64,000 nt of DNA from Candidatus Enterousia sp. (GCA_045592905.1 JAZNVR010000020.1:3471-67470), one strand, 5' to 3'. Positions 27,246 to 52,874 are shown, numbered from the stretch's first letter. The notes: generated from the sequence alone by a model not told the origin. Made by a program: numbers and translations.

Positions 27246-27339
27246 AAAAAAACACCCGCACGTGGCGGGTAATAAAAAAAACGACCAAATGTCGTTCGCT
27301 GAATAAGTGTATTATACCATAAAATACGAAAATTTTCAA
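27246..27339 (-). promoter_or_regulatory. Sigma70 promoter followed by a two-terminator leader
   Basis: TTGAAA-17-TATAAT; aacgac-atttg-gtcgtt+U run; acccgc-cacgt-gcgggt+G-U7, just before the RBS. Confidence 0.75.
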
Positions 27340-27371
27340 TAAAAAACGACCGGCAAGCGGTCGTTAATTTC

Positions 27372-27447
27372 TGGTGGGGACACAGGGACTCGAACCCTGG
27401 ACCCAATGATTAAAAGTCATTTGCTCTACCAACTGAGCTATGTCCCC
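27372..27447 (-). tRNA. tRNA-Lys(TTT)
   Basis: GGGGACATAGCTCAGTTGGTAGAGC...CTTTTAA...GGTTCGAGTCC...CCA cloverleaf, 76 nt. Confidence 0.97.
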
Positions 27448-27548
27448 AAAACCGGACCCGGAAAGGGAAAACTTGCGTTCTATTTCCGTAGTTCGGGGGA
27501 AATTTTGACATAATTAAAAACAAAAATCAAGAAAAAATGCTATTTTTT

Positions 27549-28250
27549 TTATTTTTTCTGTTTTTTAGGCTTTGATTGTTGTGCTACCACAGTGCCAATG
27601 CCTGATAAATGCTGGGATATGTTTAGTGCAGATATACTGTCTGAATCCAACCAATCCAGTATTTTTGTCGTGATTGTTTCCAGATATTTCGCAGATATAT
27701 GACGATTTTTATGAAATTTATTTTCATTTATAAAATGTGTCATCGCACGTGCCAACGAAGATAATGTCTGAACCTGATCAGAAGGCAAAACATCTGTTTG
27801 ACTGTTGCGATACAACAGTGTATCCAGTTCATTATGATATTCGTGCATCTTGTCAATTATATTAGGGGTTATTTTTAATCGTTGTGATATTTCTGATGAA
27901 CGCCATGACAACATACGATTTATATTTTCTGTTGTTATCTTTGTTCGCACCGACATAGTTTCACGCAACAGCAAAATCAGGTTTATCATTAAATCATTTA
28001 TCTTGTCGCCAATACTGTTTGCCATATGCTGTTTCATCTGACGACTTATACGACTGTTTGTATAATCATACAACAAGAACACCAGCGGAATTGACAACAA
28101 AGACGCAGATACATTTATTACTAAATCACGAATATTATCGTTTGGTGCATTATCAATCGCACCTGTATACAAAACAACACCACCTGCGATTGACAGTAAA
28201 TATGGCAAAGATCTTAAAAAAACATTGCGAAAATTGATTTTCATACACAT
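27549..28250 (-). CDS. Hypothetical membrane protein (2 N-terminal TM segments)
   Basis: 233-aa ORF with two hydrophobic stretches. Confidence 0.6.
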   Translation of the reverse strand: MCMKINFRNVFLRSLPYLLSIAGGVVLYTGAIDNAPNDNIRDLVINVSASLLSIPLVFLLYDYTNSRISRQMKQHMANSIGDKINDLMINLILLLRETMSVRTKITTENINRMLSWRSSEISQRLKITPNIIDKMHEYHNELDTLLYRNSQTDVLPSDQVQTLSSLARAMTHFINENKFHKNRHISAKYLETITTKILDWLDSDSISALNISQHLSGIGTVVAQQSKPKKQKK

Positions 28251-28292
28251 ATGATAGCATATTTTTGCGGCAACATGTACAGGAACAATACC

Positions 28293-29468
28293 CTAGCCTT
28301 CGTCTAATATATCTGGCAACACACATTTACGACGAACAACAGTAATTGCCCAGCCAAATATCATCAGCATCATTACCCCAAGTATAAAAATACTGAATGC
28401 CCAACTGCCAAACTTTGCCCCCAGACCGATAATGCCACAAACCATCATATACACAACATACATCAGTGTCGTGTACAACGACAGAACAACAGACCGATGT
28501 CCCAGTGGTATCATATTCTGAAATCTGGAATACATCAGTGTATATATGCCATAAAACAGCATATATGCCACGCCCATCATCCACAACGCCCCAGGCGTAT
28601 AAGCAAACGAAAAACCAATATACAGCGCCCCAACAACCCCGATTAATGTATACAAAAACCAGTCAGGCAGTCTTGTAAACCTGTATGCAAATCGCTGGCC
28701 CAATGTGGCACACGCCAGTAAAAAGAAAGACAGTAATCCAACATATTCAGTCGGTATCCCCAGTTGTAATCCAAGTGGGCTTAAAAAATCGTCCAAAAAA
28801 GGAACATTTACCGCCAACAATGTCAGCATCATCACAGACATTAAACATGGTGTTTTCAAACAGACACGCCAACCTGTACGAAACAATTTTGTAAAATGAA
28901 CTTTCTTGGCGACCATATGTTGGGGCGGTGTGTACTTTACCGCCATCAAGCAAATAATTGATATTAAAATTGCTGCAACAGATGCCCATGTTACCCAATC
29001 ATACCCCAAGAACATCAGCAAAGAACCAAATGCAGACAACGCAGTCCCGATTGATTCATAAGTGGATTTGCGTCCCAAGATTCGTGTATAATCATCACCC
29101 ATACCGTTTGCATACACAGAATCATATAATAAACCTTCAAATGCAACGCTGCGGAATCCGGCCTGCAGCCCCCACAGGGTCATCCCCACAACAAAACCCA
29201 TATATGACGGCCAAGCCAACCACAATAAAATTGCAATCATTTTCAAGAACTGGCCAAAAATCATGGCATATCGCTGGCCCACACGATTGGTGATAAAAGT
29301 AATTGGCATTTGCCCCATGATTGTTGCAAGTGATGATATAATAAACATACTTGATAACTGTAAATCAGACAACCCATTTTCCAACATAAAGATTGAATAT
29401 ACAGGTGTTAACAATAAAAACTTGTTGAAAAACGCAAATCCATACAAAGCAATCAACAATCGTGACAA
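28293..29468 (-). CDS. MFS transporter
   Basis: About 12 TM segments; FEGLLYDSV matches the corresponding motif of the MFS at 9758. Confidence 0.85.
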   Translation of the reverse strand: MSRLLIALYGFAFFNKFLLLTPVYSIFMLENGLSDLQLSSMFIISSLATIMGQMPITFITNRVGQRYAMIFGQFLKMIAILLWLAWPSYMGFVVGMTLWGLQAGFRSVAFEGLLYDSVYANGMGDDYTRILGRKSTYESIGTALSAFGSLLMFLGYDWVTWASVAAILISIICLMAVKYTPPQHMVAKKVHFTKLFRTGWRVCLKTPCLMSVMMLTLLAVNVPFLDDFLSPLGLQLGIPTEYVGLLSFFLLACATLGQRFAYRFTRLPDWFLYTLIGVVGALYIGFSFAYTPGALWMMGVAYMLFYGIYTLMYSRFQNMIPLGHRSVVLSLYTTLMYVVYMMVCGIIGLGAKFGSWAFSIFILGVMMLMIFGWAITVVRRKCVLPDILDEG

Positions 29469-29577
29469 TATTTTCCCCTTTTATGCCAAATTATACATAT
29501 TTTTTGCCTAAAAAGTACAGGAAATATTGATTTTTTGCTAAAATTTACTATAATTATAGGGATATAGACAAAGGTGA

Positions 29578-31428
29578 GTGCATATGGCAACATTTGAATC
29601 CAAAAATTTTATTATTGACTTGGTCAAGCAGTTAAACTTGAACAATATGGATGATGCCACACGTGCCAGACTGGACGACTTGCAAAAAAAGGGACTTGCA
29701 ACAAAAAAGCAAATGGAATGGAACCCCCGGAGTCCTGATGACCCCAGGGGCCTTGTACCGACAATTACAGAAAACGACGGCACAAATTATACATATAACG
29801 GCGAACCTGTGGCCGGTGGCAACGAACCAAAGGTTAACGATTTAGAGGAACTGTATAAAAAAATAATTGTTATCCTGCGTGAGATAGAAGCAGACAGTGA
29901 CCTGAAAGAAAACGAGCCAACAAAAAAGTTTTTAGAAACTTTTTATGGTTCGGGTCTGGCCGTAGGAAAATTTGAAATAGAACCATTGCCTGATCCAAAC
30001 GCAGAGAAAATCGCAGAATATATTGATTCAAATCTAGATGACTATACAAACTTCTTTAATGGGGAAATAAAAGAAAAAGATTTAAAATCACTGGTTGAAA
30101 AATTAAAAGACGGCAAATATGTATCTGATACAAAAGCATTAAAAACACTGGATAAATTTTTAGAAAAAATTAACTATTACTATCAATGGGATAACAGCCG
30201 ACCATTACCGACCAAAGATTTACCTGATTTTTTAGGTACAGAAGAAGAAGTTGATGGTGTTAAGTATGCAGCATTAGACGTTAAAGGAATTACCGATTTA
30301 CGCAAGAAAATAGACTCCCCAAAAATACCAGACGACTTAAGTAATTTTGACAAAGGCTTACCGGACTTATTGGATCAACTGGTAAAAAAAGAGAAATTAT
30401 TTGAAAAATTTGCAAGTAAGGATGCAGAAGGCAGTATTTCTAAATGGATTACCAAGGGTATTAATGAAACCAACTATAAAACTGGTGATCATGCACTGAC
30501 GCCAAAGTATAAAGACCGCAAACAATTTTGGGATAATGCCAAGGATAAAATAAACGAATGGTATGTTAATACACTGGGAAAACTGGAACAAAAGCACGCA
30601 CGACATATATACCAAACAAAAGCACGGCATATTGTCGCAGAACTGATAAAAAAGGGCGTAAAACCAACAGACGGCACTGGAAAAATACTGGAAACACTGG
30701 ATGCAATACGCGGCGATTTACCAAACCCAGTACAAAAGCAGTTGGACTGGATAAAGGACACATTGACGCCAATGTCAAAAACCGACTTCTTTAAAGATGC
30801 GTTACGTGATGGTGACCAAATGAACGTATTGGTTTCTGAAATAATCAAGGCAGCCGCACACGATGACAAAGAAGAGGAAGCCATGGTCGCACTGGAAATG
30901 CTGGCGGTAATGCGGTATACAATGTTTACATCATCTGTTCGTGACCAATTGAAAAAAACTGAATTCAAATTATTATCTGATGGGAACTTGTCGTTTAACA
31001 AGGGAAATAAATTTATGCAATCATTAACCAAGGCACTGGACAACACATTAAAGTTCGGTATGATGGCTGCGTTTGAAATTGGAAATTTGGCAAAAAACGC
31101 AATAAAACAACAAGGATTAAGATTTGGTAAAGGTAAAGAATCCCTGGATGAACGTATTTCAAAGAGTAATGAATATACAGATAAAGATAAACAAAAAATG
31201 ATTGAACGACTGATGGGATTTTGGAACGAGGTTAATTCATCTGCAAACACCAAGGATTATAACATATTTATATATCATAACAAAAAACAAGAGCAGGCTG
31301 ATAAAGAAAACACCGGAGAAGTTGAGGTTAAATTGGCTGGCGAACCAACCAAGTTAACACATGAAACCAACCAACAACAAATATATCTGGAATATCTGAA
31401 AAACAATAACATTGGACGTGAAGCTTGA
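29578..31428 (+). CDS. Large helical hypothetical protein
   Basis: 616-aa ORF with upstream TTGATT/TATAAT-like signals; no motif recognised. Confidence 0.7.
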   Translation: MHMATFESKNFIIDLVKQLNLNNMDDATRARLDDLQKKGLATKKQMEWNPRSPDDPRGLVPTITENDGTNYTYNGEPVAGGNEPKVNDLEELYKKIIVILREIEADSDLKENEPTKKFLETFYGSGLAVGKFEIEPLPDPNAEKIAEYIDSNLDDYTNFFNGEIKEKDLKSLVEKLKDGKYVSDTKALKTLDKFLEKINYYYQWDNSRPLPTKDLPDFLGTEEEVDGVKYAALDVKGITDLRKKIDSPKIPDDLSNFDKGLPDLLDQLVKKEKLFEKFASKDAEGSISKWITKGINETNYKTGDHALTPKYKDRKQFWDNAKDKINEWYVNTLGKLEQKHARHIYQTKARHIVAELIKKGVKPTDGTGKILETLDAIRGDLPNPVQKQLDWIKDTLTPMSKTDFFKDALRDGDQMNVLVSEIIKAAAHDDKEEEAMVALEMLAVMRYTMFTSSVRDQLKKTEFKLLSDGNLSFNKGNKFMQSLTKALDNTLKFGMMAAFEIGNLAKNAIKQQGLRFGKGKESLDERISKSNEYTDKDKQKMIERLMGFWNEVNSSANTKDYNIFIYHNKKQEQADKENTGEVEVKLAGEPTKLTHETNQQQIYLEYLKNNNIGREA

Positions 31429-31530
31429 TTTTTTTGTCGATTTGTGGTATAATATAGGCATGCGTCACTGGTCAACAGTGGCGTTTGTTTTTTTACCCCT
31501 GCCCCATTGTTGGTGGTGGGGACTTTTTTT
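31425..31530 (+). promoter_or_regulatory. Sigma70 promoter followed by a two-terminator leader
   Basis: TTGATT-17-TATAAT; gcgtcactg-gtcaa-cagtggcgt+U run; cccca...tgggg-ac-U7. Confidence 0.72.
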
Positions 31531-31561
31531 AGCTAAAACAATTAACATAAAAGGATAAAAT

Positions 31562-32128
31562 ATGACACGTGTTTTACAAATTAGACGTGGCACAGCCGCA
31601 CAACATGAAAACTTTGTCGGAATGCCCGGCGAAATCACAATGGATACAGATAATAAAAACATTCGCCTGCATGATGGGCAAACGTTGGGCGGATTCATAA
31701 TTGGTGGTGGTAACAGCACAGGCAATAATGAATTTGATATCACAACTGTACCAGATGAATTCTGGGCACACACTGTCGCAAAACATACGCCTGCACCATT
31801 TACAGTAATAGAAACAGAACCAATGACACCAAACAGTAACGCTGCTGGCCTGGATTATATTATTGGCGGAAATGAAAAACCTGTATTTATCCAAACTGTG
31901 CTGGTATGCCAAATTCCACAAGCAGGATATAACATTAATGATGAAGTATGGTGCTGGGGCATTGGAAATCGTGCAAACCCAAATCCAACACCTGTATATG
32001 ATACAGACGGATTGCACATCAGACTGATGACAAATAATGAAAAATTTTGGGTAAATAATAAAAATACAGGTACACAATCAGAAATTACCGATACTAATTG
32101 GTCAATTTTATTCCGAGTTTACTGTTGA
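31562..32128 (+). CDS. Phage tail-fibre/receptor protein with Mtd_N-type (major tropism determinant N-terminal) domain
   Basis: LQIRRGTAAQHENFVG.PGEITMDTDNKNIRLHDGQTLGG. Confidence 0.75.
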   Translation: MTRVLQIRRGTAAQHENFVGMPGEITMDTDNKNIRLHDGQTLGGFIIGGGNSTGNNEFDITTVPDEFWAHTVAKHTPAPFTVIETEPMTPNSNAAGLDYIIGGNEKPVFIQTVLVCQIPQAGYNINDEVWCWGIGNRANPNPTPVYDTDGLHIRLMTNNEKFWVNNKNTGTQSEITDTNWSILFRVYC

Positions 32129-32178
32129 AAATAAAAAATAGCTTTGCTATGCTTGGGACGAAGAAAAAAGGATGGCAT

Positions 32179-33420: not shown

Positions 33421-33424
33421 GAAC

Positions 33425-33449
33425 ATCCCCCGTTTGGGGGATTTTTTTT
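33425..33449 (+). terminator. Terminator, copy of the ATCCCCCGTTTGGGGGAT palindrome family
   Basis: Hairpin plus T run after the ackA stop. Confidence 0.8.
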
Positions 33450-33518
33450 ACTGATATATATTGAATTTATAAAAATCGTACACTACAATATAGTTATAAT
33501 AAAACAAAGGATTTAATC

Positions 33519-34058: not shown

Positions 34059-34064
34059 AAAAAA

Positions 34065-35812: not shown

Positions 35813-35821
35813 GAATTTTCC

Positions 35822-37748: not shown

Positions 37749-37796
37749 TAAAAATCCCCCGTTTGGGGGATTTTTATGATATAATGACATATAAAT

Positions 37797-39945: not shown

Positions 39946-39970
39946 AAAATCCCCCAAACGGGGGATTTTT
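39946..39970. terminator. Bidirectional terminator at the end of the virion module
   Basis: aaaatcccccaaacgggggattttt between convergent genes. Confidence 0.8.
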
Positions 39971-40229: not shown

Positions 40230-40429
40230 GACTTGTCCCCCATGCCCCTGGATACCAGCGTTTCAATTTGATGCACCAAAAAACGCTGTGATTCCAATGA
40301 ACGCAATTCTGAATCTGTGGCGTTTGGACCCAAAACACGTTCAATTGTTGTTTTACGTAAATGTTCCAAAACACGCTGACCAGACACACCAGAAAATGTC
40401 TTGGCATATGCAATTTCTATATCTGTCAT
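40226..40429 (-). CDS. Bbp19-like small phage protein
   Basis: YAKTFSG.SGQRVLEHLR......LGP...LR.LESQR.LV..IE; directly after the portal gene. Confidence 0.7.
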   Translation of the reverse strand: MTDIEIAYAKTFSGVSGQRVLEHLRKTTIERVLGPNATDSELRSLESQRFLVHQIETLVSRGMGDKS

Positions 40430-41661
40430 AACGCACCCCCAAGAACACTTTCAATTGTTGTCATTTGTGCAATTGGTGCAATATATTTTAATTCTGCATC
40501 ACTGTTTAGTTTAATCGGTTCAATCAATCCACGTGATGACAATATTTGCAATCCACGATCACATAACGGTCTGATGAATTCATGCAGCATGCGTCCATAT
40601 GTTGCACCCAAAATTCGCATCATATCTGCGTTGCGTGCCATAATTTCTGTTGCTGTCATTTCTTTCTCGCTTAACAGCCCCAACCTGTCCGCCAACAGTG
40701 CATGACGAATTCTGTCACGCAGATCTTTTAATATAATCTGTGAAACATCAAAGTCAGCCGCACTGTTCAATGGGGTCAGACCAGATGAACCAACAGCCTT
40801 TGGTATAATCGCCCCAGGGGTCAGATTGATATTATTCAGATTTATAACCCCATCATCATCTGCCTGCCAGATGCCAGACACTGCGATTGTTGCGTTTTTA
40901 AGCACCAGTTCAACAACCTTGTTCGCAGTTTTAATATCTGGTAATGCACGCATAATTGGACTGCGACCATATATTTCCCCACTGACCACAGACCAGCGGA
41001 ATATAATATATGGATTGGTTTCAAATATGCCAGTTGATACAATATTGTTTTCAATATCACCACCAACATCCAACCACGCTGTAAATTCTGTGCCAACCAG
41101 GCTTTGTACCAATTTCAATTGCATTTCTGGGTTATTTTTGATTGATTCACGTATATTTGATGGCGGTGTCCATGTTGGATATTGTTCCATAACTTCACGT
41201 GCAGACATTGAAGTCGTATGAAATACAGCATTTGGTAAAACTGCAATATCAGACATCGGAATCGCTGTAAAATTAAATGCAGATGATGTACCAATTGGGT
41301 TTTGTGCCATAAACAAGCATGCTGTTCCCAATGTAACCAAATCCATATAACACTGATGCACAGTTGTATAAAAATTAGAATCGTTTAAATGTGCCCGCAA
41401 AACAGATGTTGCATAATCTGCATCTGGTGATAATTCACTTTCTGGAACCAGTTGCAACCACATTGATTCTGGTGGTGTCAACAATGTATAGATAGACGCA
41501 GCCAAATTATCTGCAGCATCTGATGCAGTGGCATCATACAATGTGGCCAAATCATCATCTGATGTTGGCATTGTATATCTGCGTGCATCATCCCAACGCT
41601 TTAACCATGGGTTGCGTAAATCCAAGGCACGTTTATAAAGTTGCTGTAAGTTATTTTGCAT
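40426..41661 (-). CDS. Portal / head-to-tail connector (T7 gp8/Bbp21-like), compact
   Basis: LYDATA.DA.DNLAA.....LTPP...W, DLVTLGTA, PYIIFRW....GEIYGRSP.MRALPDIKTAN, MTATEI. Confidence 0.88.
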   Translation of the reverse strand: MQNNLQQLYKRALDLRNPWLKRWDDARRYTMPTSDDDLATLYDATASDAADNLAASIYTLLTPPESMWLQLVPESELSPDADYATSVLRAHLNDSNFYTTVHQCYMDLVTLGTACLFMAQNPIGTSSAFNFTAIPMSDIAVLPNAVFHTTSMSAREVMEQYPTWTPPSNIRESIKNNPEMQLKLVQSLVGTEFTAWLDVGGDIENNIVSTGIFETNPYIIFRWSVVSGEIYGRSPIMRALPDIKTANKVVELVLKNATIAVSGIWQADDDGVINLNNINLTPGAIIPKAVGSSGLTPLNSAADFDVSQIILKDLRDRIRHALLADRLGLLSEKEMTATEIMARNADMMRILGATYGRMLHEFIRPLCDRGLQILSSRGLIEPIKLNSDAELKYIAPIAQMTTIESVLGGAL

Positions 41662-41689
41662 TTTTTATCCTTTGTTTTGTGTTATTTTT

Positions 41690-42529
41690 CTAAATCTTGA
41701 AATTTGTGTTTGCATTAAATGTTTTAACGCCATACCCCAATGGCCGAACAGGTATTGGTGTTTGTGCAATCGCACCGGCAACCGCATCCAATCCGTCATC
41801 ATGACCCGCATACGCAACAGGCGACCAACCAATCATTTCTGCAATCAATGGTGTTTTCTGGACACGTATATGTGCGTATAAATGCCCCGTACTTAGAACC
41901 GGTTCAATCGCAGACAATATGCGTTCTGATTTTGCACGATTATTTGCCACACGATTTACATATATGTTGCATCCACGACGCATGGCACAATCACGCATAA
42001 TTTCTGGCAATCCGCCACCAATACCATTTGTTTCAATTGTAATTTTGTTTAATCTATGCTGATACATATAATCAATTATCATGTCGCATTGGCAGGACAA
42101 TGGAAATTGTTCTGAATCAGGCACCGTTAAATACAAAATATCATGAATAAAAACATGTCTATTTTTATCATCACGATATAACAAAACACATGCACTGCCA
42201 TCACGTTTACTGCGACCGGTTGACGGATCCCAATACAACATGCAACCAGAAATTATGTATTCGCCAATTTTGGCTGTTCTGGGTTCAAATTCTTCGTTAT
42301 ACAAATGCAATCCGCCTGGATCAAGTCTGGCACGTTCTGGCGAAATAAATTCTAGCATCATTTGTGCAGAAAAATGTCGTGGCCCAACCGTTTGACGCAT
42401 TTGGTCTATTTTTTCGTGCGGAAACAATTCTGGCCATACCGGTTTTCCGGCATTATCCACGATTGGAATTTTTAATATTTTATATCCTGATAAAAAAGGC
42501 GTTGAAAAAGCATTTTTTTCATATAACAT
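41690..42529 (-). CDS. Terminase large subunit, C-terminal nuclease half
   Basis: Probable start MLYEK at 42529; WPELF, F.AQMM, YWDPS...DGSA, IETNGIG, K..RI..AIEP, HDDGLDA. Confidence 0.82.
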   Translation of the reverse strand: MLYEKNAFSTPFLSGYKILKIPIVDNAGKPVWPELFPHEKIDQMRQTVGPRHFSAQMMLEFISPERARLDPGGLHLYNEEFEPRTAKIGEYIISGCMLYWDPSTGRSKRDGSACVLLYRDDKNRHVFIHDILYLTVPDSEQFPLSCQCDMIIDYMYQHRLNKITIETNGIGGGLPEIMRDCAMRRGCNIYVNRVANNRAKSERILSAIEPVLSTGHLYAHIRVQKTPLIAEMIGWSPVAYAGHDDGLDAVAGAIAQTPIPVRPLGYGVKTFNANTNFKI

Positions 42530-42551
42530 TGAACCAAAGAAGGAATTTGAC

Positions 42552-44117: not shown

Positions 44118-44195
44118 TTTTGTATGATTTTACTTGCACATTTTCTAAAAATTGACTAATATTTTGTCAAGAAATAAATTTTTAGGAGCATTGCC

Positions 44196-45203
44196 ATGGC
44201 ACAAGAAGAAATCATTTTTCCAAATAATATACGCAACATTCGGTTGGCGGCTGGTATGAAAATGACTGAATTAGCACGCAGAACTGGATTATCATTATCC
44301 GCAGTATCCAAAATTGAAAAAGGCGTTCGTCGCTTAAACCAAAAACAATTGTTAAATATTTGCAGTATCTTGGGTTGCAAATTATCAGATATATTTATCA
44401 AGGAATCTGACGACGTTGCAAATCAATGGCAAAATGAAATCAAACGCCGTATGACAGATAACGAAGATAACGGTCTGAAAGTATTCGGCAGTGGATTACG
44501 CAAAATCCGCCAAATCAAAGGTAAAACTATCGCACAGGCTGCCAAAGATGCTGGAATGACATTGTCTGTATATCATAAAATAGAAGTTGGACAACGTGAA
44601 ATCTATAAAAATGAAATTGAACCGTTGGCAAAATCATTCGCAATGGGCGTTGAAGATATGTTTCAACAAATCGCAGATTTATATAAATCTGGTGAATTAA
44701 ACAAACATATTAACAAGGTCAAAGAACGTGTCAAATCTGTTTTAATTCCAGGCAGTCCAATATCTGGTATTGACATGCAAGGCAGCGTTTTTGGTGCAAA
44801 ATTATATGACAGTGCACGAAAAAAATTAGTTCCTGTGTTTGGTATGCCTGCTGGAAAGGCAATTGCATTCAAAAAGTCTGACGAAACAATGATTGTCGCA
44901 CCAATCGCACTGGAAGGTCGCAAAGGTGTTTATGCTGTTGTTCCAAACACAAAAAGACTGGGTGGATTTATACCAGAAAAATCATACGTATTTGTTGATG
45001 CATTAACACCCGCAACCCCAGGCGATTTAGCGGTATGTGTTGACCCAGATTTTGATAACTTGAATTCAGAAACAACAACAACCGCACATATCGTAAGTGT
45101 TCGTCAAGATTCCAAAGGCAATTTGTATGGCCATATTGCAGCACCAGAAGAAAAAATTACTGGCAAACTAATGCACAAGGTCATAATGATTGTTACAGAA
45201 TAA
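44196..45203 (+). CDS. Regulator with two XRE HTH domains and a degenerate S24-like C-terminus
   Basis: IRNIR..AGM...ELA..TGLS.SAVSKIEKG and LRKIR......AQAA..AGM..SVY.KIEVG; C-terminal VPVFG..AG...YAV...VFVD...PGD. Confidence 0.8.
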   Translation: MAQEEIIFPNNIRNIRLAAGMKMTELARRTGLSLSAVSKIEKGVRRLNQKQLLNICSILGCKLSDIFIKESDDVANQWQNEIKRRMTDNEDNGLKVFGSGLRKIRQIKGKTIAQAAKDAGMTLSVYHKIEVGQREIYKNEIEPLAKSFAMGVEDMFQQIADLYKSGELNKHINKVKERVKSVLIPGSPISGIDMQGSVFGAKLYDSARKKLVPVFGMPAGKAIAFKKSDETMIVAPIALEGRKGVYAVVPNTKRLGGFIPEKSYVFVDALTPATPGDLAVCVDPDFDNLNSETTTTAHIVSVRQDSKGNLYGHIAAPEEKITGKLMHKVIMIVTE

Positions 45204-45233
45204 ATCACCCTATATGGAGAGAGAGGGTATACC

Positions 45234-45875
45234 ATGAAAGCAAAAATTCGTGCAACCGCACAAAAGTTACTAAATCTGTATCGCCAAGCACATGTAATTG
45301 TTGGTGGCTGGGGTACGGTTAACCCAATCTTTGTTGACGAAGCGGACGATAATGTAATTCATGAAATTCAAGATTTACCAACTGGTAAAATGCTGGTGCG
45401 TCATATTGAAAATCTGCGTAGTGGCAAAACCCCAATGGATTCAATTGAACGTGAATTGTTACCATATGGCGGCATGATGGTTGGCGAAGAAATTACCCCG
45501 ATTAATCTGACAGCAGAACAATGGTCTGAATTAGAATATGGACTTGAAAACTTTGTTCCAAACCAAGAAGGACTTGATGCATTCACTTCATTGGATGTTA
45601 TTAAGCATTTTGGCGAACAATGGCCCGAAATAATTAGTTCTGTTATACAATCAAAAAAACATTTACAAGATAAATGGGCTGCTGTAAAGCATACTTTTAA
45701 CGCATACAGACTGTGGGTATCTGCAAATGAGGTTATATCAAAACCATTAACGGAACGTGTTCGTGCCCAAGTTCAAGCAGATATGCCAGAATACGAAACA
45801 TACTTGCCGATGTTTGGCGATGCAGGTAATAAACTGTTAACAAAATTACGCACATTTATCAGCAGCATTGGTTAA
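45234..45875 (+). CDS. Hypothetical protein
   Basis: 213-aa ORF with GAGGG RBS; its stop overlaps the TerL-N stop in TTAA. Confidence 0.7.
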   Translation: MKAKIRATAQKLLNLYRQAHVIVGGWGTVNPIFVDEADDNVIHEIQDLPTGKMLVRHIENLRSGKTPMDSIERELLPYGGMMVGEEITPINLTAEQWSELEYGLENFVPNQEGLDAFTSLDVIKHFGEQWPEIISSVIQSKKHLQDKWAAVKHTFNAYRLWVSANEVISKPLTERVRAQVQADMPEYETYLPMFGDAGNKLLTKLRTFISSIG

Positions 45876-46477
45876 TCACTTGAATCGGTACGATATATCG
45901 TATCATATGTATGCGGTGTTCCAATATAAATCATTGTTCCCGATGGCGATAAGATAAAATCTAGTTCACGCAACCGTTCTCGCAGACTTTCTCGTTTGAC
46001 AGCAGTGTTTGATGTATTTGGCACTTCTACGTCATCACATATTATTAAATCTGCACGCATACCTGTTATATTTCCATAAACGCCCTGACAAATAACAGAC
46101 GGTTCACGAATACCTATTGGTCTGTTAATTGTTATGCGTCCTGTGGCCCACTCTTTTTTATTTGTTGGAATTAATTCAGAACAAAACGTATGATTTTCCA
46201 AAATATGTTTTATATGTGCTACCATACGGGTTGCCAACGTAGATTCTGCGGACAATATCAATATTCTGGTTTCTGGCCGCAAGTATAAAACACATGCCGC
46301 AAACACACCAACAACCGTAGATTTTCCAGAATGCCGAAACGCCATTAATAAACCACGATGTGGATTATGTGTCCAAACATCAACAAAAAAACGCATTATA
46401 GTACGATGATGTTTGGGTGTTTTTAATCCCAGAATTCTGTTCCATTCATCTAAAAAATTATAAAACTCCGTAATCAT
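45872..46477 (-). CDS. Terminase large subunit, N-terminal ATPase half
   Basis: Walker A MAFRHSGKST, ITGMRAD, Walker B IICDDVE, motif III YIGTPH; ends 12 residues later. Confidence 0.85.
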   Translation of the reverse strand: MITEFYNFLDEWNRILGLKTPKHHRTIMRFFVDVWTHNPHRGLLMAFRHSGKSTVVGVFAACVLYLRPETRILILSAESTLATRMVAHIKHILENHTFCSELIPTNKKEWATGRITINRPIGIREPSVICQGVYGNITGMRADLIICDDVEVPNTSNTAVKRESLRERLRELDFILSPSGTMIYIGTPHTYDTIYRTDSSD

Positions 46478-47009
46478 CGTTATTTTCATTTGGTGCAGGT
46501 TCAGAAACAAATCCGTAATCATTTATCAATACAGGCAACGCATTTTTTAGAACACTGACCAGGTTACGATACAGCCCCAGCACCGCCCCACCGGACAATT
46601 TGTCTTCTATGACCTGTAATGTATAATCCATTTGTTTTTTTATTTCATCATGTTTGTTGACCCATTCTAATAAATCAACATCTATGTTTTGTATGTCTTG
46701 AAATGCAGCCAGCAGAAAATTGAAATCCGAATTCAAGTGTTCTGGATCAATGATTTTTGTTGGCTGATAATCAATTACACGTGACAGTGATATCTGCCGA
46801 AATATATCTATCTTGGTATCAGCAGTTGGTGCAACATCAAAAACGACATTTCCACCAGAAAAATCATCATTTGGTATAATTGAAAAATTTTGATTTTCAC
46901 AATCTATGACATCATCAATAGCAACATGAATATCTGCAATTTGAAAGAAAGGAAAAGAAAACGCAAATTCTGTTGTATTACCATCTGAAACATAAGATAT
47001 TTTATACAT
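46458..47009 (-). CDS. T7 gp17-like tail-fibre N-terminal (adaptor) protein
   Basis: Y.SDGNTTEF.F.FPFF...DI.V, GG.VVF..AP......I.R, LN.DF..L....QD; ends with two DYG motifs. Confidence 0.8.
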   Translation of the reverse strand: MYKISYVSDGNTTEFAFSFPFFQIADIHVAIDDVIDCENQNFSIIPNDDFSGGNVVFDVAPTADTKIDIFRQISLSRVIDYQPTKIIDPEHLNSDFNFLLAAFQDIQNIDVDLLEWVNKHDEIKKQMDYTLQVIEDKLSGGAVLGLYRNLVSVLKNALPVLINDYGFVSEPAPNENNDDYGVL

Positions 47010-47041
47010 ACAATTCCCCCTTGGTTTGATTAGAATAAATA

Positions 47042-47386
47042 TTATCCGACCAAATCATCAAGTCTGGACAATAACGATTTTAATAAATTTGGTTTTTTTA
47101 CATTTGTGTTTTTCAACTTCATTAGATTGCTACGCTTTTTTTCATCATATGGTGCTGATGTTTCTGATTTTAATCTGCGTAGTACTGCACCCTCGCTTAT
47201 ACCACCAGACATTCCAGATGCACCAAATTTTGCACGTTGTGTTGATAAAACTTTATTTATTAAATTCGTTTTTTCTTTTTCATCTTGTGCCATCTGTTCC
47301 AATATTTCTTTACGTTGTGAATTTACATTTTTTTTAGCATCTTTGTAATCCAACAATTCTGTTACATCAGATACAATTTGTCCCAT
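47042..47386 (-). CDS. Virion-associated protein (internal virion protein-like)
   Basis: Coiled N-terminus, QRAKFGASGM..G.S..VL; lies after the tail tube genes. Confidence 0.55.
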   Translation of the reverse strand: MGQIVSDVTELLDYKDAKKNVNSQRKEILEQMAQDEKEKTNLINKVLSTQRAKFGASGMSGGISEGAVLRRLKSETSAPYDEKKRSNLMKLKNTNVKKPNLLKSLLSRLDDLVG

Positions 47387-47406
47387 TTTTTATCCTTTTT
47401 ATTATT

Positions 47407-49119
47407 TTATATCGTATACCAACCATGAACCGTTACAGACAAAATGGTTACAGGATATGGTTCTGAACCATGTATTGTCCACATTGGATTCATCGTATTA
47501 TCTATTGTTCCCAGCAAATTAACAAACACATCGCCATTATATCCGTTACTGGATGCATCATATACTTCGTTCGGTAATGTTATACGATGCTGATTAATGT
47601 ATATAGATTTAGTGTTAATCACACGTGCCACTACTTTTCGTACTTTGATACGACTGGCATTATGTTTTGATGAACGTAATGGCATCCCCGATGCACAAAA
47701 AGCAAAATGATATTGTCCTGCGTCAACCATTGCATTTTTATCAAAGACTTCTAAACAAATTTTGTTATTTCGTATAACAACGACATATGTTTTTTCACCA
47801 GATACCACAACAGAAATAAAACGTCCTTGGGTTTTATATTCAGACCATGCCGAAATTCCCAATGCCGCATTTTGATTTAACACCGCCAATACACCATCAT
47901 TTTTTACGACAAACAATTGACGATTTGTACCGTTATATGCCATATCAATAGGTTCATTCATTAAATGTTTTGACAATGCACACAAATCATTTGCGTTATA
48001 TTTTTCACCCAACTCATCCAAACTAAGTTCACGAATATCACGACCGTTTGCAGACATAAAAACTGTTGCTCCTTCTATCTTTTGTGGTGGCAAATGTCGT
48101 AACAAATAAGAACCAACAGATGTATGCTGTTTCACATCAACAGATGACGGTGTTAACGGTTTATTAGAAATTGCCCATTCACCAGAATTTGTTAATATCT
48201 GCAAATTATCACTGCTGACTAATGTGCGAATCTGTTGACGTTCTTGGGATTGTAATGATATGAATATTGCTTCGTCATCAAGTCCCGTACCAGTATCAAA
48301 ATTTTTGTGTCGTCCAACTTGCGACATCCAAACACCACTGGGCCAACTGGGCGTTCCACCAAACACCAATCTGTCCTGATGAAACGTAATACAAGATGGC
48401 CAACCACGACGATTGCTGAATGCGGACTCATACCATTGTGCAACAGGATTTTCTGGTCTGGTATAAACGCCATTTATATATGCAACAACCTGTGTTGGAC
48501 TGATATATTCTGTAATCAACCATTGATTGTCCAATAAATACAAGCGACTGCCCACACTGTCTGGTGTCCAAAAATTTGTATTCGTTGTAAACGTTGCATA
48601 ATTGTTTCCCTGGGCATTTGTATCAACTGTAATTAATACACCAGATGCATCATCAAATTTTACGAACGGCAAATTAATTGTCATATTTTCATTACCGTCA
48701 AAAATAAATCTGGATAACGAAAATCCTGTATCTGTTTTTTCCAATACATATGGCGGATAATTTGGATGCACAAAAATCATTGTATCAAAGCGTTGTGCAT
48801 ATTGAATATTTTTTACATCATCATACGCCCATGGCGATAACATATCTTTGACACGAATATTATCATGATATATATAAACACGTTGATTCATTAATGCCAA
48901 AACATATTCTTTGCCATCTGCCACAGAAAAAGATATTAATCTGGCATTATCTGGCAATTGATCCACAGTGGTTAGTCCCCATCTGCGTGATAAAGCACCG
49001 CTGGCCATAACGTCCATATTTTCTAGTTTTGACAATCCATTTATTCCATCACGTGCATAAAATTCCGAAGAAACTTCACCTTGTGCAAAAGAATTTTGTG
49101 TTTTTATAAATTCTGCCAT
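47407..49119 (-). CDS. Tail tubular protein B / nozzle (T7 gp12-like)
   Basis: Q.SF..GEVS, G.L.RR.G, YAQ..DT...VHP..PP, GWPS..TFHQDRLVFGG, W.S.VG...NF. Confidence 0.85.
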   Translation of the reverse strand: MAEFIKTQNSFAQGEVSSEFYARDGINGLSKLENMDVMASGALSRRWGLTTVDQLPDNARLISFSVADGKEYVLALMNQRVYIYHDNIRVKDMLSPWAYDDVKNIQYAQRFDTMIFVHPNYPPYVLEKTDTGFSLSRFIFDGNENMTINLPFVKFDDASGVLITVDTNAQGNNYATFTTNTNFWTPDSVGSRLYLLDNQWLITEYISPTQVVAYINGVYTRPENPVAQWYESAFSNRRGWPSCITFHQDRLVFGGTPSWPSGVWMSQVGRHKNFDTGTGLDDEAIFISLQSQERQQIRTLVSSDNLQILTNSGEWAISNKPLTPSSVDVKQHTSVGSYLLRHLPPQKIEGATVFMSANGRDIRELSLDELGEKYNANDLCALSKHLMNEPIDMAYNGTNRQLFVVKNDGVLAVLNQNAALGISAWSEYKTQGRFISVVVSGEKTYVVVIRNNKICLEVFDKNAMVDAGQYHFAFCASGMPLRSSKHNASRIKVRKVVARVINTKSIYINQHRITLPNEVYDASSNGYNGDVFVNLLGTIDNTMNPMWTIHGSEPYPVTILSVTVHGWYTI

Positions 49120-49130
49120 TTTTTCCCCCA

Positions 49131-49649
49131 TTAAAATCGTGCACTAACCAATGAAAAATCAGTTATCCCACCAGATACAGATGTTGTACTGTCTATGTAT
49201 TTAGCGTTTTGCAATTCAGATTCATACAGTGCAACCAATGTACGAAACACAGTATTATCACCCAACAATGGCATGCAAAATTCCATTGCAAGACGTGTTG
49301 CAACCAATTCAGCAAAATAACTGGGGAAACTTTCTGGTGCGGTTTTAACAATCGCAACAATAGAAATATTATCCATATCAGATATAATTTTGTTCCCAAT
49401 AATATTTCCTTGGGATTTTAATACACGTAAAACATTTGATGGCACTAAAAAGTTTCCATCTGTATTTTTTATTAAATCAATTTGCTGTTGTGCAAAATGC
49501 CATGGATGCAATGCCAACAGTGAATTAACAATCGTATCAAATAATGTACGTGCTAATTTCGCAGGGGCACTATCATCTGTTAAAGATTGGATTGGCGATT
49601 CCCCTAATTTTAATAATGCCATAGAACACAAATCTATTTTTGTAAGCAT
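49131..49649 (-). CDS. Tail tubular protein A / adaptor (T7 gp11-like)
   Basis: IDLCS.AL.KLGE.PI.S, LL..HPW.FA, FP.YF...V..RLA.E. Confidence 0.82.
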   Translation of the reverse strand: MLTKIDLCSMALLKLGESPIQSLTDDSAPAKLARTLFDTIVNSLLALHPWHFAQQQIDLIKNTDGNFLVPSNVLRVLKSQGNIIGNKIISDMDNISIVAIVKTAPESFPSYFAELVATRLAMEFCMPLLGDNTVFRTLVALYESELQNAKYIDSTTSVSGGITDFSLVSARF

Positions 49650-49726
49650 TTTTATCACCCCTTTATAATATTTTTAGAAAAAAACAGACCGGCAGAAAAC
49701 CGGTCTGTGCAAGATATAAAAGTATA

Positions 49727-49957
49727 TTATGCCAATGCAACAGTAGTTACATTTAATTCTGTAATATTTATTTTCTTAATCGCAGTGTTATCAGATGCAT
49801 TGATTATAATTATATCACCAATATTCATCAGTGTTTTAACATTATTAAAATATCCGTTTGCAGTAATTGTTGACAACGTTTCATCTGCACTGTAATGCCA
49901 CAATGTAAATCCATTTGCATATGCAATAACTGACAAGTTTTTATTTTGAAATGCCAT
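49727..49957 (-). CDS. Small capsid-associated (decoration-like) protein
   Basis: LSVIAYANGFTLWHY...GYFN...GD.I; directly after the capsid gene. Confidence 0.6.
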   Translation of the reverse strand: MAFQNKNLSVIAYANGFTLWHYSADETLSTITANGYFNNVKTLMNIGDIIIINASDNTAIKKINITELNVTTVALA

Positions 49958-50003
49958 GTTTTTTCCTTTTTTTATTTTTATTTGATTTTATTGTATTATT
50001 GAC

Positions 50004-50831
50004 TTATGCAGATTGTGTATCAGAACATTTAACACGTACGATACCATCACCATCAATTAAAACCGCACCCTGGGACATGCTGTTGCTGATAAAGTGTGCA
50101 GCACGTTCACCATGCCAAGAAATATCTGTTTTAACTTCTTGACCGCATGCATGACCGATACTGGATGCATGATAAATAAAGCAGTCACGATTTGTTTCAG
50201 ACACAGGCAAACCATTATACAGAACCCATGTAATTCCCAACCATTTGCGTGCTTCACAACCATTGATTAATGGTGTTTCACTGCCAACATAATCTGCGGA
50301 AACAAATTCATCCATTGACAATAATTCATTCCACTGATGAACACCAACAACAGCAAAGCGACGGCCATCATCTGGCACATCATTTGTGTTTAATACTTCA
50401 ACAGCAGACAATATTAAATCTTTGGTTAATCCAGTTGTATAATCACCAACATTTGCTGTTGCAGTATTCATTGCAGCAACAATTAATTCATCTGTTTTGC
50501 GTCCCAATGCGTATGCACCAGCAGAAGCCACAACACGACGTTCATCAACATTTGTTTTTAATTCATCCAATGCATCAACCCAATCACCTGCGTAATAATC
50601 TTGCAGCAAGCATTCCACAGGTTCATGATTTAAATTCATAACAGGCACAATACCATGACGTGATTTTGTACTGGCGGTGCCACGACCTACTTTTTGGAAC
50701 GTAGTAGATGCACCAACGACGCCAGATTTACTGCGAACAGTTGAACGCAACTTTGTTCCCATTTGTTGATATGCCAAATGCACATCAGCTTCAAATTGTT
50801 TTACAAAAACATTATCTATTGAAATAGACAT
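50004..50831 (-). CDS. Major capsid protein (podovirus type)
   Basis: FVKQFEADVHLAYQ..G.KLR.TV, F.KVG, D.LDELK, A.ALGRK.DE.I, DVPDDG.R. Confidence 0.88.
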   Translation of the reverse strand: MSISIDNVFVKQFEADVHLAYQQMGTKLRSTVRSKSGVVGASTTFQKVGRGTASTKSRHGIVPVMNLNHEPVECLLQDYYAGDWVDALDELKTNVDERRVVASAGAYALGRKTDELIVAAMNTATANVGDYTTGLTKDLILSAVEVLNTNDVPDDGRRFAVVGVHQWNELLSMDEFVSADYVGSETPLINGCEARKWLGITWVLYNGLPVSETNRDCFIYHASSIGHACGQEVKTDISWHGERAAHFISNSMSQGAVLIDGDGIVRVKCSDTQSA

Positions 50832-50844
50832 ACAAAAATCCTTT

Positions 50845-51058
50845 TGTTAAAAATTAATTTTACTTATCAGATTTTGTGTTTTGGTTATGCAAATAATGCG
50901 CCAGAAAACAAAAATATTTGGGTCTGCGAAATGCAGATTATCCATAAAAAATATCAGTTAGACTGTGCACAAAATCTAACTGATACTTTTATAAAAAAAA
51001 GGATCTGTGTTTTACCACAGACCCTATAAAGACAAAAACCCCACTATCGCAGGGAATT
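50845..51058 (-). terminator. Series of three terminator-like hairpins upstream of the capsid gene
   Basis: ccctgc-gata-gtgggg+U5; gggtctgtg-gtaaaa-cacagatcc+U8; tatcagttaga..tctaactgata+U6. Confidence 0.65.
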
Positions 51059-51060
51059 TA

Positions 51061-51354
51061 TTATTTCTTTTTTGCACATGCTTTTTTTGCAACTGGTTTT
51101 GCAGCCACTTTTTTAACAGGTGCTTTTTTTGCAACTGGTTTTGCAGCTGGTTTTTTTGCAGGTGCTTTTTTTGCAACTGGTTTTGCAGCCACTTTTTTTG
51201 CAGGTGCTTTTTTTGCAACTGGTTTTGCAGCTGGTTTTTTTGCAGGTGCTTTTTTTCCAACTGGTTTTGCAGCCGCTTTTTTTGCAGGTGCTTTTTTTGC
51301 AGCTGGTTTTGCAGCTGGTTTTTCTGCTACTTTTTTCTTAAAAAAGAAACGCAT
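51061..51354 (-). CDS. Histone H1-like K/A/P-rich DNA-binding protein
   Basis: AGGAG RBS; KKAPAKK(P/V)AAKPVA repeats; own TTTACT-17-TAAAAT promoter. Confidence 0.8.
   Translation of the reverse strand: MRFFFKKKVAEKPAAKPAAKKAPAKKAAAKPVGKKAPAKKPAAKPVAKKAPAKKVAAKPVAKKAPAKKPAAKPVAKKAPVKKVAAKPVAKKACAKKK
51080..51330 (-). repeat. Imperfect ~42-bp coding tandem repeat in the H1-like gene
   Basis: Repeated tttttgcaactggttttgcagc...ttttttgcaggtgc. Confidence 0.85.
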
Positions 51355-51464
51355 TTCTTCTCTCCTATTTTGTTTGAAGATAGAACAAACTTTTTTTGTT
51401 CTTGTTTTATATTTTATATTAAACATAAAATTTAGTAAAGAAGAAAAGTAAAAAAATCATATAT

Positions 51465-52121
51465 TTATGAATATAATTTTTTGAAACCATTTTCAATTTT
51501 TCTGATATATTCTGTATCATTATCACGCCAATATTTTGGATCACGCATCATGCGTCTTAAATCATCATCTGTTAAATTTTGTGTTTCATTTTTATCTGTT
51601 TTTACATTTGGTTCCATAGATTGCATCATCTTATACACGCTTTGTATTCCCTGGGGTGTAGAGCACAGTTCATTAAATGCATCATGTGGTAAAAATTTTT
51701 CACCGAATGCATTAATTGCATTTAATGCGTCCTTCATTTTTTCTGTTCCGCCAAAGAAATTTTTCAATTCATTTATTGCACCTGTTTCATTTTTCACAGA
51801 AAACAAATCAGATATAACTGGCGACAAAAAATTATTTGCGATGTCATAAATTTTTTCTACTTGTGATTTTGTTAATCCGATTTTCAAGAATTGTTCACGC
51901 AGATTTTCATCATCATACAAATCATTTTTTGGATAATCATCTGCACAATCTGGCACACCGATTGCCCGATTAAATTTTCTTTTTGCATCATCATCTGAAT
52001 TTTCTGTTGGCACAGAAATCATTGTTCCGATTTTTTTCTCTAATTCAGTATATGATTTTATCAAAGAATCAGAATTTAACGTACCATCTTCATTCAGAAA
52101 TTTTTCTGGTATATTATCCAT
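51465..52121 (-). CDS. Capsid assembly scaffolding protein (T7 gp9-like)
   Basis: IPEKF...DG......L.KSY.ELEKK; GVP...DDY; C-terminal LRRMMRDPKYWRD....I..I..GF.KLY. Confidence 0.8.
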   Translation of the reverse strand: MDNIPEKFLNEDGTLNSDSLIKSYTELEKKIGTMISVPTENSDDDAKRKFNRAIGVPDCADDYPKNDLYDDENLREQFLKIGLTKSQVEKIYDIANNFLSPVISDLFSVKNETGAINELKNFFGGTEKMKDALNAINAFGEKFLPHDAFNELCSTPQGIQSVYKMMQSMEPNVKTDKNETQNLTDDDLRRMMRDPKYWRDNDTEYIRKIENGFKKLYS

Positions 52122-52311
52122 TGTTTTTTCCTTTTGTTTCATTTGATTTACGCAAGAAATAAATCCCCCCCAATGTAAAGACTGTTTGCAACATAGTAAA
52201 CACATCTGTATCACCAACCAAGTACGCTGCCACAGCAGAAAGTATCCCTGTTCCAGAAATTATATACGTACGATATCCGGTCAGATATCCGCCCTTGAAA
52301 AACTTTTGCAT
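52114..52311 (-). CDS. Holin-like small 2-TM protein
   Basis: L.GYRTYII....ILSAVAAYLVG...TLGGIYFLR plus basic tail. Confidence 0.6.
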   Translation of the reverse strand: MQKFFKGGYLTGYRTYIISGTGILSAVAAYLVGDTDVFTMLQTVFTLGGIYFLRKSNETKGKNNG

Positions 52312-52331
52312 TAAAACACCTTTTTTAAGTA

Positions 52332-52742
52332 TTACAGATAGAACAGAAAACCATCTATATCTGCGATATATCCACGTGCGATGGCCCATTGTGGCATAGT
52401 ATCAGCCGCATGAAATTTTATTGCACCCCGACATGCATCATCCAGTCCCCCCATTAACATACGCTGTGCGACACGCACGCACATTTGGAATTTACGGTTA
52501 TTCGCATTCACATTTAATTTTTGATATTTATCTGATGTTACATTCAGTGCATCAAACACAGATTTATCTGTAATAACATCTGCGATGGCCCGACCTGATT
52601 TATCTGAAATATTTTTTATCATAGAAGTCATTGCTTCCACCAGTGTCAGCGATATTGCATCTGTTTGTGCGTATACGACACGTGCGACTTTATATGCCAG
52701 TGATGCGGACACATCTGGATTTTTTATTATTGTTAATTGCAT
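52332..52742 (-). CDS. SleB/Hydrolase_2-like cell-wall hydrolase, apparently degenerate
   Basis: ARVVYAQT (canonical ART.YxEA), D...GA.KFHA...P.WA......IDGFLFY. Confidence 0.7.
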   Translation of the reverse strand: MQLTIIKNPDVSASLAYKVARVVYAQTDAISLTLVEAMTSMIKNISDKSGRAIADVITDKSVFDALNVTSDKYQKLNVNANNRKFQMCVRVAQRMLMGGLDDACRGAIKFHAADTMPQWAIARGYIADIDGFLFYL

Positions 52743-52762
52743 ATCTTTAATTGCCTTTTGGT

Positions 52763-52874
52763 AAAAAAAGTCCCTGTGCGGACACACAGGGAATAAAAAA
52801 ACCACACATATCGTGTGGGCACAATCTGTACTGTTTATGTGCAATATAGTATCATATTTTTCATTAAAAGTCAA
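52763..52874 (-). promoter_or_regulatory. Virion operon promoter followed by a two-terminator leader
   Basis: TTGACT-17-TACTAT; ccacac-gatat-gtgtgg+U7; tccctgtg-tgtccg-cacaggga-c-U7. Confidence 0.75.

Follow-up and report, generated by a model that had tools for sequence, protein, structure and literature searches.

Why should genes scattered over a small bacterial chromosome, apparently linked by a phage-like particle, begin with a near-consensus promoter that runs almost at once into predicted transcription terminators? The question arises from a 64,000-nt stretch of Candidatus Enterousia sp. (GCA_045592905.1, JAZNVR010000020.1:3471-67470; hereafter the window), in which leaders of this kind stand ahead of a MuF-lysozyme fusion gene (L1), an Mtd_N-type tail-fibre-like gene (L2) and the first gene of a virion cluster (L3). 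A first-pass annotation of the window had placed the three loci in one group, kept silent until a processive antiterminator acts. The grouping is borne out, as the layout is specific to particle genes (seven of eight units in the genome), is conserved in relatives and contains two stems that both covary. The regulon idea is well supported, and regulated processive antitermination, to which we give about an even chance, is the best reading of how the regulon would be controlled.

The genome comprises 992,529 bp in 33 contigs and belongs to the order Rs-D84; close relatives of its capsid gene come from Candidatus Enterousia or uncultured Alphaproteobacteria of animal guts. Enterousia are uncultured gut bacteria with genomes of ~1 Mb and a probably partner-dependent lifestyle, according to the one lineage-focused paper (PMC12306168), whose abstract and excerpts mention neither phage, prophage, capsid nor gene transfer. 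Titles and abstract openings of papers retrieved for Enterousia and Rs-D84 do not mention a phage-derived particle either.

Three leaders combine a promoter with tandem terminators

Consensus scans recovered the same arrangement at all three loci, at the coordinates that the first-pass annotation had given: a TTGnnn element, a 17-bp spacer and TGnTAnnnT are followed by two hairpin-plus-T-run terminators, a ribosome-binding site and an ATG (Table 1). The -35 element of L2 overlaps the stop codon of the preceding 616-aa open reading frame, and the distance from the second stem to the start codon is 19-41 nt at the three leaders. All six predicted hairpins consist of a G+C-rich stem-loop followed by a U run, as expected of intrinsic terminators, with free energies of -6.6 to -14.9 kcal/mol (-6.6 for the first and -10.8 for the second hairpin of L1) and 6-8 T in the following 9 nt. 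In these respects they resemble the 292 terminators at gene 3' ends in the same genome (median free energy -9.0 vs -11.4 kcal/mol, T-run 7 vs 6). Two of the three leaders end on GGGAC-U7, as had been pointed out, yet this sequence is merely the 3' arm of a CCC...GGG stem. Rfam holds no family for the leaders: within the window only two tRNAs pass gathering thresholds, and a search of 49600-53000 gave three matches, all with E >= 0.73 and far under gathering.

The layout is specific to particle genes

The genome scan that the first-pass annotation had suggested yielded five further units beside the three reported. It relied on gene calls (n = 972) and a terminator rule, both from crude custom scripts; the rule demands at least three G-C pairs and returns 748 terminator-like sites genome-wide. 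Among 224 matches to the promoter pattern, 15 have a terminator within 45 nt and five a tandem pair, as compared with means of 224.4, 0.4 and 0, respectively, in ten simulated first-order Markov genomes of the same size. Eight of the 15 have a gene start no more than 86 nt away, namely the three known loci and the five new ones, so that the 992-kb genome contains exactly eight promoter-terminator-gene units, five with two terminators and three with one. In seven of them the downstream gene is a particle gene (the first of the virion cluster, a MuF fusion in three cases, and an Mtd_N fibre paralogue in three). The new double-terminator units belong to a MuF + YkuD/Tlde1 fusion on the same contig, just beyond the window, and to a 290-aa HExxH protein of no known family on contig C22, which is the eighth unit; the new single-terminator units belong to Mtd_N paralogues on C12 and C16 and to a protein of 201 aa on C32 whose C-terminus carries a MuF motif. 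The five double-terminator units emerged from each of two independent passes over the genome. At the other seven sites (Table 1), the nearest same-strand gene call is more than 1 kb away or absent; these sites may include small-RNA genes as well as chance matches.

The promoter by itself is not what distinguishes these loci. Sixty-two promoters of this type are intergenic and within 250 nt of a gene start, and 55 of them have no leader terminator, 42 of which sit at most 45 nt from the start codon. TTGnnn-N14-TGn-TAnnnT is thus a general promoter type of this genome, and it is the terminators alone that set the particle loci apart. Of the leader signature as first described, the terminators proved distinctive and the promoter ordinary, and the remark that the double-terminator layout was not seen ahead of the housekeeping genes inspected holds. 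The particle promoters are nearer to consensus than the housekeeping ones (-35 TTGAYTTTT, -10 TATAAT), and the PR' promoter of lambda is likewise strong and near-consensus.

One may ask whether the leaders are nothing but the usual 3' terminators of the preceding genes, placed by coincidence after AT-rich sequence that resembles a promoter. The equal frequency of the promoter pattern in real and random genomes would fit such a coincidence, as would the seven promoter-terminator sites that are not upstream of a gene, whereas the five double units against none in the simulations and the restriction of units to particle genes would not. Chance association is also hard to reconcile with a promoter that is kept at fixed spacing in all 61 of the further Enterousia loci described below, and we regard it as very improbable.

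The leaders are conserved and both stems covary

At 24 same-genus loci, the virion-cluster leader passes the promoter rule in 23, the 24th having a weaker -10 element, and carries two hairpin-plus-T-run units in all 24. Sixty-one further Enterousia loci, which are those with full flanks among 80 fetched, all contain the promoter pattern at fixed spacing (61/61), together with at least two terminators within 130 nt in 59 and one in the remaining two. The stem sequences diverge widely among species, and 12 of the 13 consensus pairs show compensatory changes across 63 distinct leaders. Paired cells amount to 91.4%, compared with 76.3% in shuffled alignments (none of 500 shuffles reaches the observed value) and at most 52.7% with slid partners, and 137 double-change cells are observed where 47 are expected. 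As the genomes are kin, the shuffle control overstates significance; the slid-partner control is free of that weakness. These patterns suggest that selection acts on the structure of the leader rather than on its sequence.

The other leader types follow suit to differing degrees. For MuF-type leaders the layout was recognised by eye in ~24 of 30 loci, two other families included, with three loci cut or unclear and three lacking it. Among 19 same-genus loci of the Mtd_N type, 16 have a leader with a promoter and one or two terminators, one of the exceptions being a fibre gene directly after the virion cluster; in other families one of 11 passes the strict rule, and four more have a hairpin and T-run by eye. 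In genome G040, from another family and with 31% GC, the strict scan gave two single-terminator units only and missed known leaders, because the terminator rule is too strict at that composition; a relaxed scan was noisy (15 of 314).

Conservation within the transcribed part of the virion-cluster leader starts at an invariant CAT, which we infer to be the transcription start, and runs for ~17 nt to hairpin 1, with C7, A8, T9 and A11 invariant in the 63 leader sequences; the sequence of hairpin 1 is more conserved than that of hairpin 2. A conserved TAnnnT, the -10-like pause element, was not seen by eye in the 63 aligned leaders, and no formal test was applied. Across leader classes the spacer consensus varies and resembles that of housekeeping spacers. 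In G040, a motif search found a near-identical 55-bp block, from upstream of the -35 element to the start of hairpin 1, at three loci (Table 1); such a shared block would be expected if one sequence-specific loader served all three.

The conserved stretch between CAT and hairpin 1 also raises the possibility that the leader RNA is itself the product, either as a trans-acting small RNA of ~45-85 nt or as a protein-free sensor of a small molecule or of nucleoside triphosphate pools. The conserved segment followed by a terminator hairpin has the anatomy of a small-RNA seed and terminator, and the greater sequence conservation of hairpin 1 points the same way. The 19-nt 5' segment, however, pairs with the 972 gene starts no better than shuffled seeds do (best duplex -15.9 kcal/mol; 30 shuffled seeds -15.5 +/- 1.5), so that the trans-acting small RNA was rejected as a candidate. 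Moreover, the leaders match no Rfam family, their 5' boxes differ among classes, and at ~20 nt plus a hairpin they are too short for a typical ligand-binding aptamer. We consider a role of the leader RNA as product or sensor improbable.

Terminators around the capsid gene suggest processive read-through

On the coding strand of the virion cluster, terminator-like sites in the 61 loci cluster at three places only: in the leader, 100-300 nt ahead of the capsid gene and ~250 nt after it. At least one pre-capsid terminator is present in 56 loci and at least two in 42; a post-capsid terminator is present in 45, and a sigma-70-like promoter ahead of the capsid gene in only three. In the window, three hairpins of this kind precede the capsid gene and one follows it (Table 1). 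With conserved terminators ahead of them and no conserved promoter of their own, the capsid and tail genes would need processive read-through to be expressed; barring an unrecognised promoter, RNA polymerase would have to ignore five or six terminators to reach them. A sigma-54 promoter ahead of the capsid gene was considered and rejected: a GG-N10-GC-like box is present here, but its spacing is 9-17 in relatives, and no Sigma54_DBD was found.

The pre-capsid intergenic region forms a conserved structured leader of its own, ~230 nt long in the 61 related loci. Its elements are a terminator; a long hairpin that is conserved in sequence and carries a T-run; a variable hairpin with a flanking box; and two conserved boxes, between which the length of a T-rich linker varies. 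The region has no Rfam match.

In the mechanism that we favour, the leaders would belong to a regulon for a chromosomally fixed, T7-like phage-derived particle, whose content would be the virion and lysis cluster, MuF modules fused to domains that target the cell wall, and interchangeable fibres of the Mtd_N type. Each unit would begin at a sigma-70 promoter of the extended -10 type, near-consensus but otherwise ordinary, with probably constant activity; transcripts would normally stop at one or two intrinsic terminators within ~45-90 nt, leaving the genes silent; and expression would require a factor that renders RNA polymerase terminator-resistant. The resistance would have to persist, since a further three or four terminators, and no separate promoter, precede the capsid and tail genes. 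Constitutive firing of the promoters, efficient termination at the predicted hairpins and a dedicated antiterminator that regulates read-through are each read from sequence patterns and are proposed steps of this scheme.

No antiterminator was found among the families searched

Several observations weigh against regulated antitermination. No antiterminator gene was found, with the Phage_antitermQ, Phage_AlpA and NusG-paralogue families covered and GafZ and two other Q families not searched. Phage_antitermQ (PF06530), one of the three Q families, has no match at E <= 0.1, the E. coli control being positive; the Phage_AlpA search gave a best match of 14.2 bits, under the 21-bit cut-off, inside a 462-aa frame; and the genome has one NusG-domain gene, with no second gene of the RfaH/LoaP/UpxY type. 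A generic promoter is all that the three Enterousia leader classes have in common, and each class has transcribed boxes of its own, so that a single sequence-specific loader is not evident. Three units carry a single terminator only, and the C22 unit is irregular in having a second extended -10-like promoter site beyond its two terminators. Finally, attenuation may also account for terminators in the leaders, and the post-capsid terminator could merely set capsid:tail ratios. The antitermination idea of the first-pass annotation therefore stands in part: the loci do form one group, whereas the searches for a NusG paralogue, Phage_antitermQ and AlpA came up empty. The regulator search was made with named families rather than by whole-genome Pfam annotation, and it may have missed regulators of other families. 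A search for a T7-type RNA polymerase (PF00940) gave no match in the genome and is uninformative, as its control was equally silent.

The two uncharacterised genes inside the virion cluster, HTH335 and u213, are likewise poor candidates, since both also occur in genomes without a capsid match (three such genomes for u213). HTH335 encodes two XRE-type helix-turn-helix domains and a C-terminal part that by eye is of the LexA/CI-type S24-like kind. Present in all 41 relatives and always adjoining u213 (39 of 41), it thus appears to be a general rather than a particle-specific regulator, although it may have a role in particle control. The two genes lie a few kb from the capsid gene in Enterousia and on other contigs in other families. 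u213 belongs to no family; the few named among its 1302 homologues are hypothetical proteins, and its AlphaFold model is all-helical (pLDDT 80.8). As a Q-like factor it was rejected, the best Foldseek match in the PDB having E 0.52, VIA-align giving Z <= 6.2 for the C-terminal helical hairpin only, and the gene being unlinked outside the genus. No antiterminator candidate is left standing.

The main rival is constitutive attenuation combined with insulation. Leaky terminators would dim strong promoters to a low level, fixed or stochastic, with no dedicated antiterminator, and would also block read-through from upstream tRNA and housekeeping genes. Consistent with this account are the empty family searches, the single terminators of three members and the reduced genome, in which a profile search finds two sigma-70-family genes only, making hard-wired control plausible. 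The same-strand genes preceding L2 and L3 end 30-88 nt ahead of the hairpins, which would thus also terminate those transcripts, and the post-capsid terminator is placed like T-phi of T7, which sits after the capsid gene and sets capsid:tail ratios. On the other hand, L1 and two closely similar units already own a separate terminator upstream of the promoter, the capsid, as the most abundant part, lies behind five terminators without a conserved promoter, which is the wrong direction for stoichiometry, and a near-consensus promoter followed by a strong block would be wasteful if never relieved. We regard attenuation as rather unlikely and retain regulated processive antitermination as the better account.

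tRNA genes directly precede several leader-bearing genes: tRNA-Lys lies before L1, and tRNA-Glu and tRNA-His lie before two others. By eye, a tRNA-like 3' end is also found upstream of the C16 unit.

Particle genes and neighbouring features

The virion cluster encodes, in its upstream part, a cell-wall hydrolase, a 91-aa membrane protein, a scaffold, a Lys/Ala-rich protein, the capsid, a 76-aa open reading frame, tube A, tube B, a gp14-like protein, a fibre N-terminal adaptor and the N-terminal half of the terminase large subunit (TerL); the C-terminal half and the portal follow in the downstream part. Together with the dispersed loci this amounts to a complete, chromosomally fixed T7-like structural gene set. 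The capsid gene is present in 38 of 41 relatives from six families of the order, with identities of 65-96%; the three genomes without a capsid match (G033, G034 and G037) are 63-92% complete. Of 495 relatives among genome contigs, all 80 listed are records of uncultured bacterial metagenome-assembled genomes, and the same host gene lies upstream of the virion cluster in 24 same-genus loci. The particle genes are thus chromosomally fixed and inherited across the clade, as expected of a domesticated particle.

Three MuF-motif proteins have different partners: a lysozyme, a YkuD/Tlde1 domain, and an N-terminal domain without an assigned family in the protein whose MuF motif is C-terminal. Pfam Phage_Mu_F scores of 23.3 and 28.0 bits are under the curated cut-off of 29.6 bits; the fusions also match PHROG minor-head or head-morphogenesis profiles (1e-6 to 3e-10), and the fused domains are clearly recognised (Phage_lysozyme 2e-18, Tlde1 1e-9, YkuD 1.6e-8). 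Small open reading frames after the Tlde1 fusion could be immunity-protein genes. The three Mtd_N paralogues have a common N-terminus and unrelated C-termini.

Within the cluster, the two TerL halves match consecutive parts of one PHROG profile and are separated by three plus-strand genes, dnaB, HTH335 and u213. dnaB is the sole DnaB_C match in the genome and diverges from TerL-C, their ATGs being 22 nt apart. The Lys/Ala-rich protein between the scaffold and capsid genes contains histone-H1-like repeats and a weak HC2 match (23 bits against a 40-bit cut-off). The C22 protein matches no Pfam or PHROG family; Atlas leads point only to hypothetical clusters, some viral, with SprT-like annotation in 16% of one cluster.

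Immediately upstream of L3, a gene encodes a biotin/lipoate ligase domain with a GRGRxxRxW motif by eye and no N-terminal helix-turn-helix. An overlapping 139-aa open reading frame upstream of it has a terminal winged-helix-like segment by eye, and the two could be a split BirA-type protein. One and the same short palindrome, a terminator of the form TCCCCC, 4-5 nt, GGGGGA that has T-runs on either strand, appears at several intergenic sites of the window (Table 1).

Table 1. Positions of leaders, terminators, particle genes and other features (window numbering unless another locus, contig or genome is named; G000 is the genome under study).
Feature	Position	Strand	Details
L1 promoter	27311..27339	-	TTGAAA, 17-bp spacer, TGg, TATAAT; 11/12 consensus matches, TG present
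L1 tandem terminators	27246..27297	-	hairpin 27297..27279 + T8; hairpin 27271..27253 + T7
L2 promoter	31425..31453	+	TTGATT, 17 bp, TGg, TATAAT; 10/12 consensus matches, TG present
L2 tandem terminators	31462..31530	+	hairpins 31462..31484 and 31502..31521, T7 after each
L3 promoter	52846..52874	-	TTGACT, 17 bp, TGa, TACTAT; 9/12 consensus matches, TG present
L3 initial transcribed region	52819..52845	-	conserved from invariant CAT on (CAT-A/C-AA-C/G-AG..A.ATT)
L3 tandem terminators	52763..52818	-	hairpins 52818..52802 and 52792..52771, T7 after each
Pre-capsid structured leader	50832-51060	-	
Three pre-capsid terminator-like hairpins	50953..51054	-	between Lys/Ala-rich and capsid genes
Post-capsid terminator	49684..49708	-	after capsid and 76-aa genes, ~25 nt before tube gene
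MuF-like + phage-lysozyme fusion, 389 aa	26063..27232	-	Phage_lysozyme 2e-18; Phage_Mu_F 23.3 bits, cut-off 29.6
Other MuF-motif proteins	L001 3278-4399; G000 C32 from 7959		
Mtd_N-type tail-fibre-like gene, 188 aa	31562..32128	+	Mtd_N 3.5e-15; PHROG tail protein
Other Mtd_N paralogues	G000 C12 18176; G000 C16 6542	-	
T7-like structural gene set	40426-52742	-	plus dispersed loci
Virion cluster, upstream part	45872..52742	-	profile matches incl. PHROG
Virion cluster, downstream part	40426..42529	-	TerL C half (ATG at 42529) and portal
TerL N half	45872-46522	-	PHROG profile 270-459
TerL C half	41690-42529	-	PHROG profile 468-704
Lys/Ala-rich protein	51061-51426	-	
HTH335	44196-45203	+	two XRE-type domains
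u213	45234-45875	+	no family
C22 leader-bearing gene	L002 9129-10104 (G000 C22)		290-aa protein, HExxH motif
Ligase-domain gene	52909-53980	-	
Palindromic terminator	33426-33440, 37755-37769, 39950-39964, 63017-63031	both	
Promoter-terminator sites without a gene	C2 23915, C5 2039, C9 13626, C11 40500, C23 17157, C23 73350, C30 20864		
G040 55-bp block, virion cluster	G040 C2 137306	+	
G040 55-bp block, Mtd_N gene	G040 C1 647743	-	
G040 55-bp block, 61-aa membrane protein	G040 C1 45236	-	

Discussion

The leader control proposed here resembles the lambda Q, AlpA and GafZ kinds, in what is apparently an undescribed domesticated T7-like particle system. In lambda, late control combines the PR' promoter, the tR' terminator and the Q antiterminator (PMC7969949, PMC11150451). 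As in Q-type control, a terminator lies here between the promoter and the late genes. Both systems have a strong promoter (constitutive in lambda), a short terminated leader RNA (predicted here), and downstream virion and lysis genes that need, or here would need, a polymerase resistant to terminators, later ones included. Unlike lambda, the Enterousia genome has no Phage_antitermQ match in the one Q family searched, no conserved -10-like pause element recognised by eye in the transcribed region, two terminators within ~90 nt of the start, and at least eight dispersed units in place of one late operon.

The closest known layout is that of the AlpA regulon of Pseudomonas aeruginosa, where one leader terminator precedes alpB and two precede PA0807 (PMC7969949). 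AlpA loads at the promoter spacer and from then on disregards terminators, whatever their sequence, and the genes it controls cause self-lysis (PMC7969949; the regulon is also treated in PMC9371919). Common to both are dispersed loci with a shared promoter followed by leader terminators. The present system differs in that no Phage_AlpA match exceeds the cut-off, no shared spacer element like the one bound by AlpA is evident across leader classes, and the targets are a whole phage-particle gene set.

In Caulobacter, GafZ drives read-through of an alphaproteobacterial gene transfer agent (GTA) cluster, in which the first gene is followed by a terminator made of 150-bp GC-rich repeats; the GTA promoters have a degenerate -35 element and need the activator GafY and IHF, and GafZ has a single target promoter (PMC11150451). 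Both cases concern an alphaproteobacterial domesticated particle with a main cluster and accessory loci elsewhere, whose cluster transcription needs antitermination, as shown there and proposed here from sequence. In contrast to Caulobacter, the promoters described here are near-consensus, the terminators lie within the leader, and many loci are involved.

The MuF fusions recall the MuF polymorphic toxins of temperate phages (PMC5576092) in that the domains joined to a MuF-like module vary (lysozyme, YkuD/Tlde1, or an N-terminal domain without an assigned family). They differ in being chromosomal and dispersed, each behind a terminator-gated leader, and their MuF scores are below the curated cut-off.

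As in T7, an intrinsic terminator directly follows the capsid gene within a T7-like gene order. Unlike T7, no T7-type RNA polymerase was found here, in a search whose control was uninformative, and transcription would have to use the host polymerase.

Taken jointly, these observations lead us to a tentative picture, possible but somewhat doubtful as a whole. Rs-D84, an order of gut Alphaproteobacteria with reduced genomes, would carry throughout an undescribed and vertically inherited T7-like particle, either a GTA of a sixth, independent kind or a capsid-based device for toxin delivery, with interchangeable fibres and MuF-fused cargo that attacks cell walls, under a regulon of at least eight units held off by leader terminators and freed by an antiterminator. 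The antiterminator would be of a new class, given that no Q, AlpA or NusG-paralogue family is detectable, with one of three Q families searched.

Small as it is, at ~1 Mb, this genome of an unstudied lineage has kept the complete set of genes for a T7-like particle, and they are strongly conserved. The leader layout provides a sequence signature for finding more regulon members in related genomes and a testable handle on how and when the particles are made. If read-through is regulated, the missing factor would probably be a new antiterminator; if it is not, the leaders would be an example of promoter-proximal terminators serving as fixed dimmers in a regulator-poor genome.

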